Origin: Escherichia phage JEP6
Length of the DNA: 64,000 nt
Sequence record: MT764206.1
Direction: 5' to 3' (one strand)
The position numbers and the translations under genes were made by a program. Under the pieces are notes generated by a model, which was not told the origin of the DNA, searched no databases, and worked only from the letters and a program-made list of their open reading frames with translations. This document shows positions 11,721 to 31,558 of the stretch, piece by piece. Within the stretch, counting starts at the first letter, position 1. Each line of letters opens with the position of its first letter.

Positions 11721-12736
11721 TGTGTTGCCTCTACATATAGCTGATTTGCATATTGAATAAGTGCTTCACGGTCAGAATCAGTGATGTCTGGAATTGCATT
11801 AATATACTCTTCCATTAATGTCTGAAGCGATTGAACTTCAACTTCTTCACTGTCATCTGACTCGACAGAGTTATCAATCTTTGACACAACTCGTAACGAA
11901 TGCACAACTTTTTCTAGTTCAGATTCGAACTTCGTCAGATTTTTGTCTACTTCAGTTACTATAACACGTACTGATAGATTTGTAAAATCTTTATAGTCAA
12001 TTTTTCCTTTAAATGGATAATGAATTCTACGATGCCAGGTAGTATTGTTTGGAATAAATTCCATTCGTTCTGTTTCTGTATCAAACATCCAGAACCCACG
12101 AGGGTCATTCTCGTCACCGGCAGTTAGTGTCCATGGTGTCCCAATATATCTGACGTTAGCAGCCTCAGAGATAGTATGGAAGTGACCAGACCACACCTCT
12201 TTATAAGTCTTAAGGAAATCGGGTTCAAGACCATGAGATTTCATTCCTTTATAAAAATAAAATCCATTCAGTTCCCAGTGACCAACACAAAAAGAAGCAG
12301 ATGAAGTTTTGATGTGCTCAAGAATTTCACCAGTATTTTCTTCGCACATCCAAGGAATTAAATCAATCAAACATCCGTCAAAATCTACTGTAGTAGGCTT
12401 ATCATATACTTTAACATTAGGATATTTAGCCAAAAGCTCAGTAGAGGCATTTGGATGCATTACATTTTTATAGTGGAGATCGTGATTTCCTACAATAGTA
12501 TGTAATGTGATTCCAGCGTCATCAAGCATTTGAACTATTTCACGGGCAAACTCCATAGTTTTGTGTGTGATTGCTTTTCGCACATCAAAAATATCACCAT
12601 ATTGAATCCAGGTAGTAATTCCATTTTTCTTAGAATATTCTATTGCTTGTTTAATTCCATCAATTTGAATACCGCGAATCCACTCATCATCAGCTTTAAC
12701 GCCTAAATGCCAATCACCTAAATTTAAAATTTTCAT
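11717..12736 (-). CDS. 47: Recombination endonuclease subunit (Mre11/SbcD-like phosphoesterase)
   Basis: Motifs GDWHLG, GDIFD, GNHD, GHWE. Confidence 0.92.
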   Translation of the reverse strand: MKILNLGDWHLGVKADDEWIRGIQIDGIKQAIEYSKKNGITTWIQYGDIFDVRKAITHKTMEFAREIVQMLDDAGITLHTIVGNHDLHYKNVMHPNASTELLAKYPNVKVYDKPTTVDFDGCLIDLIPWMCEENTGEILEHIKTSSASFCVGHWELNGFYFYKGMKSHGLEPDFLKTYKEVWSGHFHTISEAANVRYIGTPWTLTAGDENDPRGFWMFDTETERMEFIPNNTTWHRRIHYPFKGKIDYKDFTNLSVRVIVTEVDKNLTKFESELEKVVHSLRVVSKIDNSVESDDSEEVEVQSLQTLMEEYINAIPDITDSDREALIQYANQLYVEATQ

Positions 12737-22299: not shown

Positions 22300-22476
22300 T
22301 CAAGTATTGTAAAACATTCGATGCAATCGCTTATATTGTCGAATCATCTTTTTAGTAGGACGAGAATAAGTTCCTACACAAGTGGTCATATTAGGGTCTG
22401 TAGAATTTCCTTTAATAAAAAGTTTCCAAACCTTACCGCCATTTAACTTTTCAGTATAAATCAATTCAGTTTTCAT
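22300..22476 (-). CDS. Small hypothetical protein (49.1 position)
   Basis: 58-codon ORF MKTELIYTEKLNGG...; ATG overlaps the upstream stop (TAATG); below the track cutoff. Confidence 0.35.
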   Translation of the reverse strand: MKTELIYTEKLNGGKVWKLFIKGNSTDPNMTTCVGTYSRPTKKMIRQYKRLHRMFYNT

Positions 22477-22940
22477 TAAAATGCTCGGTCAGAAAAAGAA
22501 ATTTGAGTTTCAAGCCATTCAATATATTCTGCCGCAGCTTGCATCAAATTTCCTTCATAACCATCGTTGTTTTCTTGCGCAGCTAATTTAGCTAATGCAT
22601 ATGAAATGCGTTCACCTTGAAAAGCGGCTTTAGGTTTATGAATAGCTTGATCAACTCGTTCTACAACTTCTTCAATTTCGCCATTTTCTACTGATTCAGT
22701 ATTCCACAAGCACCAATACGTAATTGGCTTATCGTAGATGTTAATAACCTTTCCATCAGAAAGTTCAATTTCAATAATTCCAGTATCAGGTTCTATATCA
22801 TCTTCACATTCTTTTGCGAGTTCACGAACTTTAAAGACAGTACCTGCACTAAGTTCTGGCCAATAATTACATAGCCCTTTATCAGCACGATTAATTCTAA
22901 ACCACTTATCTACTGTAATCATGTCCCATCTCCATATCAA
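22476..22940 (-). CDS. Hypothetical acidic protein; possibly the Lon-protease inhibitor pin by position
   Basis: 154 aa ORF at the expected pin position; identity not confirmed. Confidence 0.4.
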   Translation of the reverse strand: MIWRWDMITVDKWFRINRADKGLCNYWPELSAGTVFKVRELAKECEDDIEPDTGIIEIELSDGKVINIYDKPITYWCLWNTESVENGEIEEVVERVDQAIHKPKAAFQGERISYALAKLAAQENNDGYEGNLMQAAAEYIEWLETQISFSDRAF

Positions 22941-23045: not shown

Positions 23046-23366
23046 TTATAGCGTAATCCATTCTCGTATTGTCTGAGTTACTACACGTTCACGGGGCTCG
23101 ACCAGTTCAACAGTCGGAACTGCATAATACCAGTCAGAATGGTAAGAACCTGAACGGCATTCATTTACGGAAACATGTACATTATGTTTTGGACTAAAAT
23201 AAACACACTGACGATATTGACATTTACCGTCTTGCACCCAGTCTTCTATTTCGATAGGTTTAAGATAATCCGAAAAATCGAAATCATAATTTTCTGAAAA
23301 TGCATCATGGTCTTCGATGATTTCACTCAGAACTGCATCAACATCTAATTTATTTTCAATATTCAT
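23046..23366 (-). CDS. Hypothetical acidic protein
   Basis: 106 aa ORF. Confidence 0.5.
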   Translation of the reverse strand: MNIENKLDVDAVLSEIIEDHDAFSENYDFDFSDYLKPIEIEDWVQDGKCQYRQCVYFSPKHNVHVSVNECRSGSYHSDWYYAVPTVELVEPRERVVTQTIREWITL

Positions 23367-24026: not shown

Positions 24027-24317
24027 TTATTCCTTAATTCCTAGTACTTGTTTAAAAGTCTCGTCGTAATCAAGACTTTGACCTGTTTGTTCTTTATGTT
24101 TGTATATAATATCACTTACTTCTGATAGCATATTTTTATATGAACGAGTTAAAGCAGATTTAAGCACGCTGTATCTATCAGGAAATTTACCATGTTCATT
24201 ATAATAAGCTATTGCTAATTCACGGACTGCCTTTTCAGCAGTCTCCATATATTCTTTACGCTTGGTCATTTTCTTCTCGGTTAAATCGGTGTTTGCAATG
24301 ACGACATTTATATTCAA
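24027..24317 (-). CDS. Hypothetical protein
   Basis: 96 aa ORF. Confidence 0.5.
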
Positions 24318-24573
24318 GCTCTGGTTTACGCCAGTTAATCAATTGGACCTGTTCAGTACCACATTTTGGGCAATTCGGAACATTCTTAGAAGCCCTTTCG
24401 CGGCGTTCAACCATAACCATAATGGCATCCCAAGCAGGAGGTTTAAAGTCTAGATCGTCACAGCCATGAATCTTTCCACGCATTTCCAAATCGTCTTCTT
24501 CACCAGCCATAATAATTTTAATTAGACTAGAATTACTTGAAGCTGCAATGTCTTCTAATAGACGCTTTTTCAT
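24256..24573 (-). CDS. Zinc-ribbon protein
   Basis: CPKCG ... CRHC pairs; 105 aa. Confidence 0.5.
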
Positions 24574-25499
24574 TTCAATACCTCAATAGCATTGCGTAAA
24601 CCATTTGCTTTGGCGGTTAAAGCCTTAAGAACTTTAGTATGCTCTTCAATTTGTTTTTCAACTTCAATCAAACGAGCATTGAGATATTCGCGTTCTTCAC
24701 TCAGATTATCAGCCTTTTCTGCTTTAGGTTCTTTTACAACTTGCTTATATGTATTAGGGTTCTTCAGTTTAATTAGAATGCGTGAACTGTACAGCATTGA
24801 ACCATTATCTTCGGTTTCGTCATACATTTCCACTACGTCCATCATCTCCACCATCGTGCAGAGTTTATAAGACAACGAACGAATAATTTTGTTGTGCTTA
24901 TTAATTTCTCTAGCTGTCATGGTGCCGAGATTACGTGAGTAATAATAAGGAACCTGGATATTAATTAATACTGATGAACCACCTGGCTTGTGTGTTACTT
25001 CATCAGCAATAACCCAATCCTTAACATGAACTGTATTTGTACGGTCATCGCCCGCGGTAAATAGTTTACGAGCATGCTTAAAAAGCATATTCACTTGGTC
25101 ATTGAATTGACAAGCGAATTTATCAGCAAATTTAGTTTCGGGAATGGTAGATAACCAATCAGCCAAATGGGTCTTTTTAACATCGTTAACAATAGTAAAT
25201 TCAACCAAATCGGTTATAGATGTCTCAGATTTAATGAAGCTCGGCTTCATAAAGTTTTTAATGTTATCACTAGCTACAGTAGAAGATAACAGACGAGAAC
25301 GTTTAAACCATTGAAGCAAATTGCCTAACGAATGTGAATACGCATTTTGTGTATCTTTACAAATATGGTTTTCCCATCCAATATAGTCTAAAAAATCACG
25401 AAGAATATTATTGATTACTGCTCTGTGTCCTATCTGATAATTACGATGTTTAGTAATAAGACTGTCAAAATAATCAATATAATGTTTACGAGTTTTCAT
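24570..25499 (-). CDS. Hypothetical protein, member 1 of a tandem paralogue array (C-terminal coiled coil)
   Basis: 309 aa; shares the FK(R/E)SRLLS motif with the next ORF. Confidence 0.55.
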   Translation of the reverse strand: MKTRKHYIDYFDSLITKHRNYQIGHRAVINNILRDFLDYIGWENHICKDTQNAYSHSLGNLLQWFKRSRLLSSTVASDNIKNFMKPSFIKSETSITDLVEFTIVNDVKKTHLADWLSTIPETKFADKFACQFNDQVNMLFKHARKLFTAGDDRTNTVHVKDWVIADEVTHKPGGSSVLINIQVPYYYSRNLGTMTAREINKHNKIIRSLSYKLCTMVEMMDVVEMYDETEDNGSMLYSSRILIKLKNPNTYKQVVKEPKAEKADNLSEEREYLNARLIEVEKQIEEHTKVLKALTAKANGLRNAIEVLK

Positions 25500-25551
25500 G
25501 TTCTTCTCACTTGGTTAATGATTTATACTCCGAGCCATCCTTGGCTTTAAA

Positions 25552-26553
25552 TTACTTAATTAACTGTAAAGCTTGTTCCAGACGATCAAGACGATTAACA
25601 GATTCTTCCCAAATCCTTTTAGCCTGCTCATATTCTTTCTGCGCTTTATTAGAAATTTCTAGAACTTCTTTATAAGCTTTTTCTAGTGCAATAACTTCTG
25701 GACGAATTTCTATCGGTTCAGGTGAATCATCAAGACATTCCATTAGTTCCTCAAGGGTAGTTTCTTCTTTAGGAGTATTCACAATTTCATCACATTTTTG
25801 TTGGTAAATTTCTTTATCAGTTAGTGAATAAGCACATTTCACTTCACGAAGGCTAATTACGAGTTTATATCCTTCCCAGCCGCATATATTCTTAAAAGGA
25901 TATGTATGAATACTTTTTACAGTTTCCATACAGCCCAAAGCCGCCTCTAATTGATGAGTTATAGTGCTAGCAATTGAGAAAAATTTATTAATGTTCTTTT
26001 GGTTAGCTTCTGGTGTAAAAAATCTGTAATTAATAAAAATAGCTACTTTGTTTTTATCAAGCTCATATTCTTCTGCTATAATCATATCATCAGCTAAGGG
26101 ATGAATTTGACGATAATCGCCATAACATAATTTAGAAGCTGATTTTAGAATTTGCTTCGTAAAACTCCTAAATTCACTAACCCAACGACGAGTAAAAATA
26201 TTCTCAGGGTCTTCTTTAGTATTAAGATGATAAGTATTAACATCACCGAACCAATTATATCCTACTACATCTTTGGTTCGTTTAATTTCTTTCCCAAAAT
26301 TACCAAGAATATCCCGATTAACCAAATATGAAAGAAGACGAGACTCTTTAAAGGTTTTCTTGATAAGATCTTTATCTACACGGCTAGAAATTTTACGAAT
26401 TTCATGAATAAATTTAGTAGAAGAAACAATACTTGCATCAACACTATTGAGCCATTGATTGATAATAGAAAGAACGCTATTTTGGCCAAACATCGGTATA
26501 GCTTTATCATCAATAACGCTATTGAATGATTTGATATATTCGTTACGAGTCAT
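25552..26553 (-). CDS. Hypothetical protein, paralogue array member 2
   Basis: ATG at 26553 with GAGGAG SD; shares motifs FKESRLLSYLV and F(R)xxTKQILKSASKL with neighbours. Confidence 0.55.
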   Translation of the reverse strand: MTRNEYIKSFNSVIDDKAIPMFGQNSVLSIINQWLNSVDASIVSSTKFIHEIRKISSRVDKDLIKKTFKESRLLSYLVNRDILGNFGKEIKRTKDVVGYNWFGDVNTYHLNTKEDPENIFTRRWVSEFRSFTKQILKSASKLCYGDYRQIHPLADDMIIAEEYELDKNKVAIFINYRFFTPEANQKNINKFFSIASTITHQLEAALGCMETVKSIHTYPFKNICGWEGYKLVISLREVKCAYSLTDKEIYQQKCDEIVNTPKEETTLEELMECLDDSPEPIEIRPEVIALEKAYKEVLEISNKAQKEYEQAKRIWEESVNRLDRLEQALQLIK

Positions 26554-26610
26554 AATAATCTCCTCAGTAGAAAGTAAAAACATTATACCACATCCTTGTG
26601 GCAAAGTAAA

Positions 26611-27633
26611 CTAGTTCAGTGCATTTAGTGCATTGTTCAGTTTAGAACGTTGCTTTGTCAGATTTTGAACCCTTGACTGAGCTTGTTTTAACACCTTTTC
26701 AGCTTCTAACACTTCATTGGTCGCTTTAACGAGTTCATCATCTACTGCCTTAAGAGACTTCTCAATCGCGTCAGCGTGCCATTTTTCTACAGGTTTAAAA
26801 TTTGAATTTTCAGTAGGAAGAAAACTCACTTTATTAAGTTTACATGCATCTATATTGCTTGAGCTATACATCCAAAATTTAGGATCGTTTGATGAGTAAT
26901 TAGATGAATTTAAGGTATTTTGCACTTCCTGCTTTTTCTCTTGAACAATTTCATCCTTTCTCAAAAATTCATATTTAAATGAAACGATCATATCAAGTTC
27001 ATATGTTGTTGTATGTTCCCAATTTCGCTCAAAATGAGGTAAAATCTTAGATTGAACAGCAGCAACAACATCCATATACTTAAATGCTTCTGTCAGCTGT
27101 GATTTAAGACATTCACAAATTGAAAGAGAATTTTTTGTATTAGGTTTAAAGCTAATTCGTGCAGTTCTATTATTTTCTTTTAATGGTCTTACTTCCATCT
27201 GAAGAGTATAACCATCAAATTTCAGGTTCTTTAAGTTAATGTCAGAACCTTTTAATCGACTCGCAATTGATAAAATTTGTTTTAATTGTTTACGGAATAG
27301 AGCAATAAATCTCCATTCAAGACGATAATGATTTGGATTAAAAAATCCAGTTGATAGATCAGTCTTACTTTGACCAACGCCTCGAACAAATAGAGGATTT
27401 TTATAATCAATAGTTTTACAGAAATCGGTGAGCTGCTCGCGAGCAGTCATTTGTGTAATATACCCTGCTTTACTAAAATTACGCACCCATTCACTGCTAT
27501 TCGTATACTTAAAGTGATGAATAACACGATTAACTTTATCAGGGTCTAAATTATTTTCACACAAAAATGTCATAACATCACGAGTATAACTGGCATTACG
27601 AACCATATCTTCAATTTGAGAACGAGTTTTCAT
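26611..27633 (-). CDS. Hypothetical protein, paralogue array member 3
   Basis: 340 aa; FRKQLKQILSIASRL motif; C-terminal coiled coil. Confidence 0.55.
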   Translation of the reverse strand: MKTRSQIEDMVRNASYTRDVMTFLCENNLDPDKVNRVIHHFKYTNSSEWVRNFSKAGYITQMTAREQLTDFCKTIDYKNPLFVRGVGQSKTDLSTGFFNPNHYRLEWRFIALFRKQLKQILSIASRLKGSDINLKNLKFDGYTLQMEVRPLKENNRTARISFKPNTKNSLSICECLKSQLTEAFKYMDVVAAVQSKILPHFERNWEHTTTYELDMIVSFKYEFLRKDEIVQEKKQEVQNTLNSSNYSSNDPKFWMYSSSNIDACKLNKVSFLPTENSNFKPVEKWHADAIEKSLKAVDDELVKATNEVLEAEKVLKQAQSRVQNLTKQRSKLNNALNALN

Positions 27634-27641
27634 GGTGTTCC

Positions 27642-28529
27642 TTAAGATTTAAGTAAATCAACAATTTTAATTAATTTTTCACGTTCAGATTTAGCTTTAC
27701 TACTCAATCCAGATAGTCTGAAAATTTCATCGTCATATTGTTGAATAGAAATATTCAGCTCTTCAATTTGCTTATTAAAATAATCAATTTGTTCAGAATG
27801 CTTTTCATTACTGCGAACTGGTACAGGTTTTGTAGGCAATTTAGATGAACTGGATTCATCTGGGCGATAAATTAAAATGCAATTTGAACCAATCGGACAT
27901 TTAGCACCAGACACATATTCTAATGTTCCGGCTTCTTTTAAAACTTCAAAGGCTAAACAGAGATGATGCCCCATATTAACATAATCTGTAGAGCGAGCTC
28001 TGACGTAATAATCATCTCCACGAGTGCTAAATTTAAAGCATTTAAGGTCTTCTGTATTATTGGTCTTAAAAATCATTTGTTTATCTAGACCTTTAGCTAA
28101 TCGAGCACCTAATGCTAATAATCGTCGTTGATTTTCCCACAAATCCGCAATCATTTGGTCGAATGATAATTTTGGCATTAGTCGACCATAAAGGTCATAT
28201 CCTTTATTATAATTGCGAAGAATTTCACTCGCATTAATACGAGACAATGCTCCAATTTTATTAAGGGCTTTCATGATGCGATTAGATAAAAGCATTCCAG
28301 ACCCGTTTGTTCGTTGTAAATGTTTTTCTAATCCAAATCCAATATCAACTTTAAACTTATCTAAAATTTCGGCGTGAACATCTTTATCGATAACATTTAA
28401 ATTTAGTACTGGGTTAAATTTATGAAAAAATTTATCTGACTCGTCGCGTTGAAGTACAGTCCATTCATTTGATTTTTTATTAACTAAAGATTTAATTACT
28501 GCATTGACATTATTAATTGCTACTGACAT
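27642..28529 (-). CDS. Hypothetical protein, paralogue array member 4
   Basis: ATG at 28529 with GAGG SD; C-terminal coiled coil. Confidence 0.5.
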   Translation of the reverse strand: MSVAINNVNAVIKSLVNKKSNEWTVLQRDESDKFFHKFNPVLNLNVIDKDVHAEILDKFKVDIGFGLEKHLQRTNGSGMLLSNRIMKALNKIGALSRINASEILRNYNKGYDLYGRLMPKLSFDQMIADLWENQRRLLALGARLAKGLDKQMIFKTNNTEDLKCFKFSTRGDDYYVRARSTDYVNMGHHLCLAFEVLKEAGTLEYVSGAKCPIGSNCILIYRPDESSSSKLPTKPVPVRSNEKHSEQIDYFNKQIEELNISIQQYDDEIFRLSGLSSKAKSEREKLIKIVDLLKS

Positions 28530-28536
28530 ATTTTCC

Positions 28537-28944
28537 TCACTCAATTTCAATTTTACTAAATACACAGAATATGATGGAAAAGACTATATAAGCACCGCAT
28601 ACAGATTGAACTAATACCATTCCAAAGAACCAAACAATATTATCAAACAATGTCTGTTTTACGTCGAAAGGACGTAAACTTACAGTAATATTATCACCTT
28701 TTTCTATTGAAGAATACATCTCTGGGGAAATATATTCACTAAATCTATAACCGTCTTTGAGTTCATATATAGCAATAAACGATAAACTAGACCCCTTTCC
28801 TTGTGTTCCTGTAATAGTATTAACTACAGTAACATCATAATCTTTATAATGCATATAATCATTAATTGCGTAATAACCATATGCAATTACTATACATAAA
28901 CAACATATCAATAAATTCAATCTTTTAATTATCAACTGTTTCAT
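28537..28944 (-). CDS. Membrane protein
   Basis: 135 aa with N- and C-terminal TM helices. Confidence 0.5.
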   Translation of the reverse strand: MKQLIIKRLNLLICCLCIVIAYGYYAINDYMHYKDYDVTVVNTITGTQGKGSSLSFIAIYELKDGYRFSEYISPEMYSSIEKGDNITVSLRPFDVKQTLFDNIVWFFGMVLVQSVCGAYIVFSIIFCVFSKIEIE

Positions 28945-28999: not shown

Positions 29000-29527
29000 T
29001 TATGCGAGTACCGTCTTTAACCGTTCTTCAAACTTCCGAAGAGTATTCTGGCGTTCAGCTCTTTGCTTTTTGTAAGTTTCAATACGCTCTGAAATGAGAG
29101 TGTATCGTTCATTTACTGATTCTTTCATAAAATCAGGAATTTCACGAGAAGCTTTAATCTCGTCAAATTTATCAATAACAGCTTGCTCTTCAGCAATTAA
29201 GTTATCATACATCAAAATATCTTTCTTGATGAACTCAATATCTTCTTGAGTTACACGAGATAATTTAGATGCTTTATCCTTTTTGTACTGTTCGTTAGTA
29301 TCACGAGACCAGTGTAATGTACGATTTTTATTCGTATTCTTGTAAATTTCTACAATACCGATCTCATCGATAATAACGATCCAATTCCAACGGGATTTGT
29401 AAATTTGTCCTCCATCAACAGTGATTTCACCTCCGATTGAGATGTCATTAAAGAACTTGCTTTGTGCTTCTGATTTAAATTTACCATCGTTGTAATTTAC
29501 CAGGTTGAAAATATCTTTAGCGTTCAT
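29000..29527 (-). CDS. Hypothetical protein
   Basis: 175 aa ORF downstream of the promoter at 29555-29585. Confidence 0.5.
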   Translation of the reverse strand: MNAKDIFNLVNYNDGKFKSEAQSKFFNDISIGGEITVDGGQIYKSRWNWIVIIDEIGIVEIYKNTNKNRTLHWSRDTNEQYKKDKASKLSRVTQEDIEFIKKDILMYDNLIAEEQAVIDKFDEIKASREIPDFMKESVNERYTLISERIETYKKQRAERQNTLRKFEERLKTVLA

Positions 29528-29992: not shown

Positions 29993-30961
29993 TTATTTCA
30001 GAAGAGTAACCTCAGCGATTTCTTCCCAACCGTTTTTGTCGGTCATAATGAAGTCAGCAAGATAAAGAGCAGTACGCAGTGAAACATTACGTAAACGGTT
30101 AACATTGACTTTCATCCATGATAATGCTTTATAAGTTTCTTCATCAGAAAGACCGCGCTTTTGCATCATGTCAGTTGAAAGAATAACATCTTCAACCCTG
30201 ACCATAATTTCTTCATTAGTGTGAACACCCAAATCCAAATAAACCGAGCGGGACACTAATGCTTGTAAATGTGGAGCAAGTTTAGTACCACGGTCTAATT
30301 CGCGGTCAATGTCAACGTTTGTGATAAAAACAATCGTTCCTTTAAATTCAAACTCACGCTCAATGCCTTTTTCTTCTAAGTAAGAAGACGCAGTGCTCCA
30401 GCAGACTTTACGGGTCTCTCCAGTGTCCAGAGCGGCTTTTAGAAGATTAAGAATGTCCATATCAGAGAAAACATCCACATCATCAATCAAAAGGACAGAA
30501 TTCTCTTCACGATTATTCCAAAGCTGCTCATAAAGACCAATACCAGAGATTTTACCATTAATGCTTTTATATTCAATGTATCCAATATCATTTGCTTTAT
30601 TTAAAGCTTTATCTAAAGAATACGTTTTACCAATACCTGCTGCGCCAGAGATAATTAATGAACGAATATTTCCGTTAATAATACCATTCGTCATCATTCC
30701 CATAACATTAAATCTTTTATTAATGCGGGTTTTCATATCTTCATATGATTCTTTAACTTCTTCAACTTTTACACCATCATATGAAATATCTGATTTGTAA
30801 ACCCAAACACCGCGACGTTTACCGTCAATTTCAACAAAAACTTTACCATCTCCTTGTGCATCTACCGGAGCATTATCTGGGAACCATTCTCCTAAGAGCT
30901 CAAAAGTTCCAGAGATTTCTTTACCGAAGTAGATACCCTTATTGATAGTTACAGTTTTCAT
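29993..30961 (-). CDS. P-loop NTPase (AAA-like)
   Basis: Walker A GAAGIGKT, Walker B LLIDDVD; ATG at 30961 with GGAG SD. Confidence 0.6.
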   Translation of the reverse strand: MKTVTINKGIYFGKEISGTFELLGEWFPDNAPVDAQGDGKVFVEIDGKRRGVWVYKSDISYDGVKVEEVKESYEDMKTRINKRFNVMGMMTNGIINGNIRSLIISGAAGIGKTYSLDKALNKANDIGYIEYKSINGKISGIGLYEQLWNNREENSVLLIDDVDVFSDMDILNLLKAALDTGETRKVCWSTASSYLEEKGIEREFEFKGTIVFITNVDIDRELDRGTKLAPHLQALVSRSVYLDLGVHTNEEIMVRVEDVILSTDMMQKRGLSDEETYKALSWMKVNVNRLRNVSLRTALYLADFIMTDKNGWEEIAEVTLLK

Positions 30962-30993
30962 TTTATTCTCCAATTTCACATTTGTTTTGATAG

Positions 30994-31025
30994 GGTAATA
31001 GTATCACACTACTACCCTACTGTAA
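30994..31025 (-). promoter_or_regulatory. Early promoter cassette copy
   Basis: taatagtatca ... gtaaac. Confidence 0.55.
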
Positions 31026-31030
31026 ACAAT

Positions 31031-31294
31031 TTATTTTAATGTTTGCCAAATTTTTACTGCTTCGCGACGAGATACTTCTACAGCTCCAAGTTCTACGGCT
31101 TTTTGGCGTCGGCGAGCATGTAAGTCATAATGTTTAATGCGTTTATCTTGAAACCAAGAACGTTTCATTCCTATTGCTTCTGCCATTTTATGAAGCTCTT
31201 CAATATCTCCATCAGTGAACATATGACAATTTTTAGTTGGATGACCGCGAAGTTTCCATCCATGATTCATTAAAACATCTACGTAAACTGTCAT
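31031..31294 (-). CDS. Hypothetical basic protein
   Basis: 87 aa ORF. Confidence 0.5.
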   Translation of the reverse strand: MTVYVDVLMNHGWKLRGHPTKNCHMFTDGDIEELHKMAEAIGMKRSWFQDKRIKHYDLHARRRQKAVELGAVEVSRREAVKIWQTLK

Positions 31295-31475
31295 TGATTC
31301 TTCTCCAAATAAGTTTCGATAATTTTCTGAGCGAGATAAACTGCATTATCTTCAGTTGCATCTTCTAAGAAACTTTCAAAACACTCTGAAATTTCTTCTG
31401 TGTCAATCAACTTTTTTACTTCAATTGGTGTAATTTTCATTTTGTTTTCCGTTTAAGTGTTTGTTTTGATAGTTG

Positions 31476-31506
31476 TATAGTACCATAAAGCTTTATGCTT
31501 GTAAAC
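31476..31506 (-). promoter_or_regulatory. Early promoter cassette copy
   Basis: tatagtacca ... gtaaaccactttgtgaaaaaa. Confidence 0.55.
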
Positions 31507-31538
31507 CACTTTGTGAAAAAATTTTTGAAATAAAAAAA

Positions 31539-31556
31539 GGGAGCCCGAAGGCTCCC
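31539..31556 (-). terminator. C(UUCG)G hairpin
   Basis: gggagcccgaaggctccc directly after the upstream gene's stop. Confidence 0.55.
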
Positions 31557-31558
31557 TA

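Follow-up and report, generated by a model that had tools for sequence, protein, structure and literature searches.

The stretch of Escherichia phage JEP6 (MT764206.1) analysed here, 64,000 nucleotides (nt) long and hereafter called the window, comes from a T4-like phage of the genus Tequatrovirus and carries four consecutive open reading frames (ORFs) on its minus strand, designated A, B, C and D. Comparison with the T4 reference map identified them as nrdC.3, nrdC.4, nrdC.5 and nrdC.6, flanked as in T4 by nrdC/nrdC.1/nrdC.2 on one side and by nrdC.7-nrdC.11 on the other, in an early accessory region on the early-gene strand. An original prediction, made by a model that saw only the letters and a list of ORFs, had proposed an array of four genes of similar size; the ORFs were found where it had placed them, with products of 309, 333, 340 and 295 amino acids (aa) and spacers of 8-57 nt. 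A megablast search with 4.5 kb spanning the array matched 643 phage records, the top match being Salmonella phage SG1 (97.6%). The four genes are:

24570-25499, minus strand: gene A, nrdC.3 type, a paralogue of B and a divergent allele (309 aa; phrog_1435, E = 1e-115)
25552-26553, minus strand: gene B, nrdC.4 type, the sequence link between A and C (333 aa; phrog_1435, E = 6e-165)
26611-27633, minus strand: gene C, orthologue of T4 nrdC.5, Pfam DUF7235 (340 aa; PF23882)
27642-28529, minus strand: gene D, nrdC.6 type, a probable remote paralogue (295 aa; phrog_2257, E = 5e-150)

The length of B was counted from a conserved MTRNEY start, with longer starts possible at 26583 and 26604, and that of D from an ATG, with a GTG start possible at 28565. 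The phrog_1435 profile matched both A and B over their full length, as did phrog_2257 for D, while PF26897 was carried by B homologues and PF26899 by all 105 of the 105 D homologues. In many public records these genes are annotated as thioredoxin, a name carried over from the locus name nrdC. The GenBank label on nrdC.1 to nrdC.11 was rejected as name propagation without Pfam support: no thioredoxin or glutaredoxin Pfam domain was found in A, B, C or D, and the predicted folds of B and D consist of a helical bundle, an alpha/beta head and a long helix, not of a thioredoxin fold.

The original prediction had read the four genes as an ancient tandem duplication, partly from short motifs shared between pairs. 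Both quoted motif pairs exist (FKRSRLLSSTV at residue 65 of A and FKESRLLSYLV at residue 68 of B; FRKQLKQILSIASRL at residue 113 of C and FRSFTKQILKSASKL at residue 128 of B), and they are not chance resemblances, as they are located within significant alignments. At the level of single sequences, blastp aligned A with B over 226 aa (E = 1.7e-8) and B with C over 146 aa (E = 0.003). Comparison by hhalign of family profiles derived from 16 related loci gave probabilities of 97.6-98% for A and B (E = 3e-12 to 2e-13) and of 86-90% for B and C (E = 2e-6 to 5e-6, about 240 columns). When the C-terminal tails were removed, the values were 98.1% for A and B (E = 8e-14, 205 columns) and 54% for B and C (E = 1.3e-4, 162 columns, including an FRxxxKQIL motif), so that the similarity of both pairs extends beyond the coiled coils, contrary to the outcome that the original prediction had named as its refutation. 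With the tails alone, A and C were significantly similar (E = 3.9e-5), and those of B and D showed no significant similarity to any other tail by hhalign. On sequence comparison, A and B fall firmly into one family with C. An HMMER search of 1.84 billion representative proteins with a combined A and B profile returned only nine clusters, none of them C-type, D-type or clearly outside T4-like phages, and no further member of the superfamily was found in the 64-kb window. The idea of an ancient array of paralogues therefore stands by sequence for A, B and C; for D it is probable only, by fold.

The alternative for D is that only A, B and C are paralogues and that D is unrelated, having converged on the same combination of globular domain, linker and coiled coil. 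Several results weigh on that side and against the grouping of all four. No significant similarity of D to A, B or C was detected by blastp, by hhalign with or without tails, or by searches with hidden Markov models (HMMs); a 34-residue motif HMM built from A, B and C placed D at E = 8.4, at rank 28 of the 242 ORFs of the window; and an hhalign comparison of the D and B families that included secondary-structure lines from the AlphaFold (AF2) models gave a collinear, full-length alignment without significance (E = 0.11), the secondary-structure term having added nothing. PHROGs and Pfam likewise place D in a family separate from that of A, B and C. A motif of D, NQRRLLALGARLAKGLDKQ, had been paired by eye with KQILKSASKLCYGDYR at an equivalent helix position, and this pairing was discarded after the test with the A/B/C motif HMM.

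A shared fold had been suggested as a check, and here the models of B and D agreed in the order of their core elements. In the AF2 models of B (predicted local distance difference test, pLDDT, 82; predicted template modelling score, pTM, 0.67) and D (pLDDT 79), the elements follow one another in a common order, namely helix, helix, short helix, beta-hairpin, long helix, beta-hairpin, disordered linker and terminal helix, and the order of eight core secondary-structure elements is the same in both. Alignment of the two secondary-structure strings scored 65.5, compared to 30.8 ± 9.8 for block-shuffled strings, and none of the 2000 shuffles reached the observed score (z of about 3.5). In Foldseek searches of BFVD, the two models matched the same six uncharacterised Straboviridae proteins of about 310-335 aa with a probability of 1.00. 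These belong to phages of other Straboviridae genera: IME523 (E = 2.5e-8 with B and 4e-7 with D), PM2 (4.8e-8 and 1.1e-6), fHyAci03 (1.5e-6 and 1.5e-5), Acj9 (1.7e-5 and 1.1e-4), Acj61 (2.5e-7 and 1.1e-3) and fHe-Yen9-01. Overall, the E-values of these matches ranged from 1e-8 to 1e-3, with a clear gap before unrelated proteins, and the B model also matched A-type proteins at E = 6e-8. To be set against this agreement, the Foldseek TM-scores of 0.42-0.50 were modest and the root-mean-square deviations large, as expected for flexible multi-domain models, and are not decisive; moreover, the fold comparison covers the models of B and D, through their element order and their shared matches.

Relatives from other genera provided a second line of evidence. 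The D HMM matched CC31p082 (E = 5e-7), which in turn matched JD18gp070 (E = 1.4e-8), and the D family aligned with the intermediate family formed by these two proteins at 75% probability (E = 2.6e-5, 198 columns). JD18gp070 weakly matched both the B HMM (E = 0.004) and, at the expected position, the A/B/C motif HMM (E = 0.005). Widening the intermediate families with related loci and tblastn yielded no better bridge, every genus having its own narrow family. In addition, the single-copy gene of these other genera occupies the same place beside nrdC. Taken with the common core order and the shared BFVD matches, these links make it probable that D belongs with A, B and C as a remote paralogue, and convergence of an unrelated protein is unlikely.

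Each of the four proteins follows the same plan: a largely helical N-terminal part, then the alpha/beta head, and after it a disordered linker that leads to the heptad helix at the C-terminus. As had been claimed, all four C-termini are heptad-like, over about 45-60 residues by a crude score of a and d positions. In the AF2 models the C-terminal helices are long (residues 285-332 in B; 242-271 and 277-294 in D) and are preceded by a low-confidence linker. The cores and tails were delimited as follows:

25840-26199, minus strand: residues 119-238 of B, alpha/beta core (head), with helix, helix, short helix, beta-hairpin, long helix and beta-hairpin
27861-28169, minus strand: residues 121-223 of D, alpha/beta core with the element order of the B core (AF2 and string alignment)
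24573-24716, minus strand: residues 262-309 of A, C-terminal heptad/coiled-coil tail (heptad score, conservation and tail-only hhalign match to C)
25555-25704, minus strand: residues 284-333 of B, C-terminal long helix/coiled-coil tail (AF2 helix 285-332, heptad score and conservation)
26614-26793, minus strand: residues 281-340 of C, C-terminal heptad tail (heptad score 0.9 over residues 282-340)
27645-27809, minus strand: residues 241-295 of D, C-terminal helical tail of two helices (AF2 helices; many invariant columns)

In all four families the tail was the best-conserved region and the alpha/beta core was among the most variable; in B it was the most variable region across distant homologues. 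Among distant members, identity in the tail and in the core was 0.85 and 0.46 for A (divergent alleles), 0.57 and 0.38 for B, 0.30 and 0.21 for C, and 0.64 and 0.40 for D, respectively. The N-terminal part was variable, like the head. Specificity is thus probably carried by the head, and a common function probably by the tail.

Two irregular forms of nrdC.6 were observed in other phages. In the T4 reference (L002, NC_000866, about 12006-12110, equivalent to 27645-27760 of the window), nrdC.6 has a frameshift after '...KQIEEL', with the last ~37 tail codons intact in another frame, so that the conserved tail is missing from the annotated protein of 275 aa; either a mutation of the laboratory strain or an error in sequencing may be the cause. 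In the NrdC.6 homologue of Shigella phage Sf25 (P0120, 378 aa), about 83 residues (IRAHSTDYVNMGH...KQIEEL) spanning the end of the core and the linker are present as an internal, in-frame tandem duplication.

The genes of the array diverge far faster than those around them. Identity between genera was 21-49% for B, C and D, whereas it was 67-91% for the flanking genes compared (endonuclease VII, nrdC, nrdC.8, nrdC.10 and nrdC.11). Among close Tequatrovirus alleles, the ratio of nonsynonymous to synonymous substitution rates (dN/dS) was 0.20 for A, B and C and 0.11 for D, compared to 0.01-0.06 for conserved neighbours, an amino-acid change being tolerated 3 to 20 times more readily in A-D than in the latter. 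Ratios of 0.11-0.20 indicate that purifying selection acts on the four genes and that they are functional.

Copy-number variation among related phages, another check that had been proposed, was found, natural phages carrying one to four copies. In Tequatrovirus the order is usually D-C-B-A, with up to four copies, while nine more distant T4-like contigs (L008-L016, Dhakavirus-like) have D-C-B, Mosigvirus G53 has D-C-A, and Karamvirus CC31, Jiaodavirus JD18 and Lazarusvirus AC4 each have one relative beside nrdC. Reduced arrays were also observed: Pinarejo keeps C-B-A with D cut down to its last 47 codons (L018, 6001-6141), ACG-C40 has D alone intact together with remnants of C (residues 1-69) and A (residues 238-309; L034, 1013-1424), and in Salmonella phage Manna (H149) the array is reduced to a remnant of B (residues 251-333). 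In one contig B is divided into two ORFs (L007, 7971-9003), and a metagenomic protein (P0119) is a fusion of NrdC.5 with NrdC.3. Full-length intact ORFs were nevertheless present in 528-741 records, representing hundreds of genomes.

Gene A of the window (24570-25499) was 76% identical to the Mosigvirus G53 allele (L017, 7028-7975; about 83% at the nucleotide level) but only 62% identical to T4 NrdC.3 (L002, 8934-9860), although the genes flanking the array are 91-100% identical to those of T4. This closeness to Mosigvirus within T4-like flanks indicates allele exchange between lineages and gives the array the look of a mosaic, exchanged cassette. At the DNA level, only short chance matches were found within the array when repeats were looked for. 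A simple tandem duplication in situ, as originally proposed, is accordingly too simple an account, given the missing DNA repeat, the genera with D-C-B or D-C-A and the allele exchange; the array owes its form to ancient duplication combined with differential loss and the exchange of alleles between lineages, and not to recent duplication in place. Overall, nrdC.3-nrdC.6 probably form one fast-diverging superfamily found only in T4-like phages (Straboviridae).

For one member of this superfamily a function has been demonstrated. C was 91% identical to T4 NrdC.5 over all 340 aa, occupies the same position between nrdC.4 and nrdC.6, and matched PF23882 over its full length at 403 bits (cut-off 30), a profile not matched by A, B or D. 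A T4 clone with compensatory deletions became unable to infect ECOR17 (Srikant, Guegler and Laub, eLife 2022, PMC9391042). Deletion of dsr1 from the host gave infection back to this clone, plasmid-borne dsr1 protected MG1655 from it, and plasmid expression of the early gene nrdC.5 restored its plating on MG1655 with dsr1 (PMC9391042). Dsr1 is a sirtuin defence that depletes NAD+ (nicotinamide adenine dinucleotide) and is overcome by T4 NrdC.5 (PMC9391042); according to a 2026 preprint, its Avs7-like tetratricopeptide repeat (TPR) sensor has the phage major capsid protein as its trigger (PMC12803255). T4 tolerates loss of the nrdC.1-6 fragment on a laboratory host (PMC9825161). A further anti-defence gene lies about 1.2 kb from the array: the protein encoded at 23046-23366 (minus strand) is 96% identical to T4 gp49.2, whose counterpart in T6 inhibits OLD defence (2026, PMC13096335). 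The window C differs from T4 NrdC.5 chiefly at residues 200-290, where the last hairpin and the linker lie, and its specificity could therefore differ from that of the T4 protein.

The reading favoured here, with somewhat better than even confidence, is that the array is a diversifying anti-defence family whose members are tuned to different host immune sensors or sensor variants, which makes A, B and D good candidates for disarming other bacterial defences. Under the mechanism proposed, binding of the variable head to a defence protein's sensor domain would keep that protein from recognising its trigger or becoming active, in the manner of DSAD1 and DSR2. NrdC.5 would be directed at the Dsr1 TPR sensor, whose normal trigger is the major capsid protein; that the NrdC.5 head probably binds this sensor is argued by analogy with the binding of DSAD1 to the DSR2 sensor. 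Through the conserved tail the inhibitor would form oligomers and so gain avidity against oligomeric defence proteins, and A, B and D would act likewise on other sensors or sensor variants. Such targets would explain the fast divergence, the flux in copy number and the dispensability on defence-poor laboratory hosts. The suggestion of 'diversified binders or decoys' in the original prediction fits the anti-Dsr1 orthology of C, the fast evolution and the changes in copy number, with binding or decoy action itself putative.

Some observations temper this reading. The experimental support is confined to C, through the anti-Dsr1 activity of its T4 orthologue, and both the anti-defence roles of A, B and D and direct sensor binding are proposed by analogy. 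Oligomerisation through the tail is suggested only by heptad patterns and by isolated long helices in the models. PADLOC gave no credible match for A-D, the sole match being a weak coiled-coil one of B to BrxC (E = 0.0065), and sequence searches of the PDB with A+B, C and D returned nothing significant. Finally, the gene-wide dN/dS is below 1, so positive selection is not demonstrated, and relaxed constraint would also raise the ratio.

A competing account is that A, B and D are early proteins with roles outside defence, in host transcription, metabolism, the envelope or phage exclusion, and that the anti-Dsr1 activity of C is one specialisation among general host-takeover factors. Host physiology is the target of many T4 early genes, the literature searched contains no functional data on A, B or D, and the genes have no credible match to defence-related profiles or known anti-defence families. 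Host-takeover targets are conserved, however, so it is unusual for such factors to diverge to the extent seen here while their neighbours do not; the flux in copy number and the dispensability suit strain-specific functions, and the only characterised member and its near neighbour gp49.2 are both anti-defence proteins. Neither the non-defence roles of A, B and D nor the demotion of C to one specialised takeover factor is likely.

Less probable still is a single hetero-oligomeric complex in which the four proteins act jointly as subunits, joined through their coiled-coil tails, and not as independent inhibitors. The adjoining of the four genes on one strand with short spacers, the conservation of the heptad tail in each protein and the significant similarity between the A and C tails would all suit a complex of this kind. 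Yet plasmid-borne nrdC.5 alone restored infection on dsr1 cells (PMC9391042), the paper being silent on deletion of its neighbours in that clone; natural phages carry subsets of the array, namely D in ACG-C40, C-B-A in Pinarejo, D-C-A in Mosigvirus, D-C-B in L008-L016 and a single copy in Karamvirus, Jiaodavirus and Lazarusvirus; and the B and D tails have no significant similarity to the others. That the array is decaying, functionless DNA in which old duplicates drift apart, as its deletability in the laboratory and the disrupted copies (the T4 reference nrdC.6 frameshift, the split B of L007 and several remnants) might suggest, is very improbable in view of the intact ORFs maintained in hundreds of genomes, the purifying selection, the confident and folded models of B and D and the demonstrated function of C.

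Among further features of the region, one lies within the array itself:

26582-26610, minus strand: putative sigma-70-like promoter just upstream of B (TTTACT, 17-nt spacer, TATAAT with an extended -10 TG; consensus scan 10/12)

By its sequence, it is a candidate early promoter within the array. Directly downstream of A, NrdC.2 (24256-24573, minus strand) has two CxxC pairs and weak zinc-ribbon matches (Zn_ribbon_8, E = 1e-4), with a 4-nt overlap between its ORF and the stop of A. On the other side, NrdC.8 (29000-29527, minus strand, 175 aa) ends in a heptad-like helix at residues 136-175; it was considered as a truncated relative of the four paralogues and ruled out, similarity to A-D not being detected, and one paper reports its down-regulation in DRT1-expressing cells. 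NrdC.10 (29993-30979, minus strand), which belongs to this accessory block too, is a putative ATPase with weak P-loop matches (AAA_14, E = 6e-5; AAA_22; nSTAND3, E = 5e-4). The spacer between nrdC.10 and nrdC.11 (30980-31558) measures about 580 bp in the window, compared to about 115 bp in T4, and holds a 104-codon ORF (31034-31345, minus strand) that may be a small inserted gene. The place taken in T4 by pin (161 aa), between endonuclease VII and 49.1, is occupied in the window (22300-22940, minus strand) by ORFs of 58 and 154 aa.

In the literature searched, NrdC.5 is the only phage gene linked to Dsr1 inhibition, and no function was given for nrdC.3, nrdC.4 or nrdC.6, nor was their paralogy or DUF7235 mentioned. 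While C is already known as an anti-Dsr1 gene, what is new is that A and B firmly, and D probably, belong to its family. Membership of this superfamily turns three neighbours into concrete candidate inhibitors of other defences in a genetically tractable model phage, and it identifies single-copy relatives beside nrdC in the Klebsiella, Enterobacter and Acinetobacter T4-like phages used in phage therapy. The copy number of the array may also help explain differences in host range among near-identical T4-like phages. The result is not surprising in kind, but it would give specialists a set of anti-defence candidates in T4 that lend themselves to testing.

Among known systems, tail terminator, completion and collar proteins (lambda gpU, T5 p142, SPP1 gp17-like, DUF3168) were considered for comparison with the alpha/beta head. 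The head could derive from or mimic a neck protein of the tail-terminator or tail-completion type and serve as an early, non-activating decoy in the pockets of TPR-type sensors, a suggestion that is quite doubtful. The same low likelihood attaches to its two corollaries, namely that sensors of the Dsr1, Avs7 and Avs15 class would be occupied before the late structural proteins appear, and that the array would be a panel of structural-protein mimics, one per sensor, made oligomeric by the coiled-coil tail. The array was not assigned to virion neck or tail proteins themselves, which are encoded in a late structural module, as its genes are found in the early accessory region, with nrdC on one side and nrdC.7-11 on the other; nrdC.5 has been described as an early gene (PMC9391042).

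The closest known relative of the favoured anti-defence family is T4 NrdC.5 (DUF7235, PF23882), of which C is the orthologue and B, and A through B, are sequence-detectable relatives; A, B and D differ from it in having no PF23882 match. DSAD1 of SPbeta-type phage is a functional analogue, in that it comes from a phage and counteracts a defence-associated sirtuin NADase. In two reports on it, DSAD1 is described as binding the sensor domain of DSR2 in competition with the trigger (PMC10981675, PMC11087589), with structures of the DSAD1-DSR2 complexes solved by cryo-electron microscopy. It belongs to another phage lineage, targets DSR2 and not Dsr1, and is not reported within a paralogue array; close sequence homology of A-D to DSAD1 is unlikely, if the DSAD1 chains are among the PDB sequences searched. 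The array also resembles anti-defence islands such as the T4 dmd-tifA-adfA 'anti-TA island' (TA, toxin-antitoxin), anti-CRISPR loci and T6 gp49.2, which likewise consist of dispensable, fast-evolving early genes that set host range, and it lies near a proven inhibitor gene, the gp49.2 orthologue. Neighbours in such islands are generally unrelated small proteins, whereas the members of the array are mutual paralogues of about 300-340 aa with several domains.

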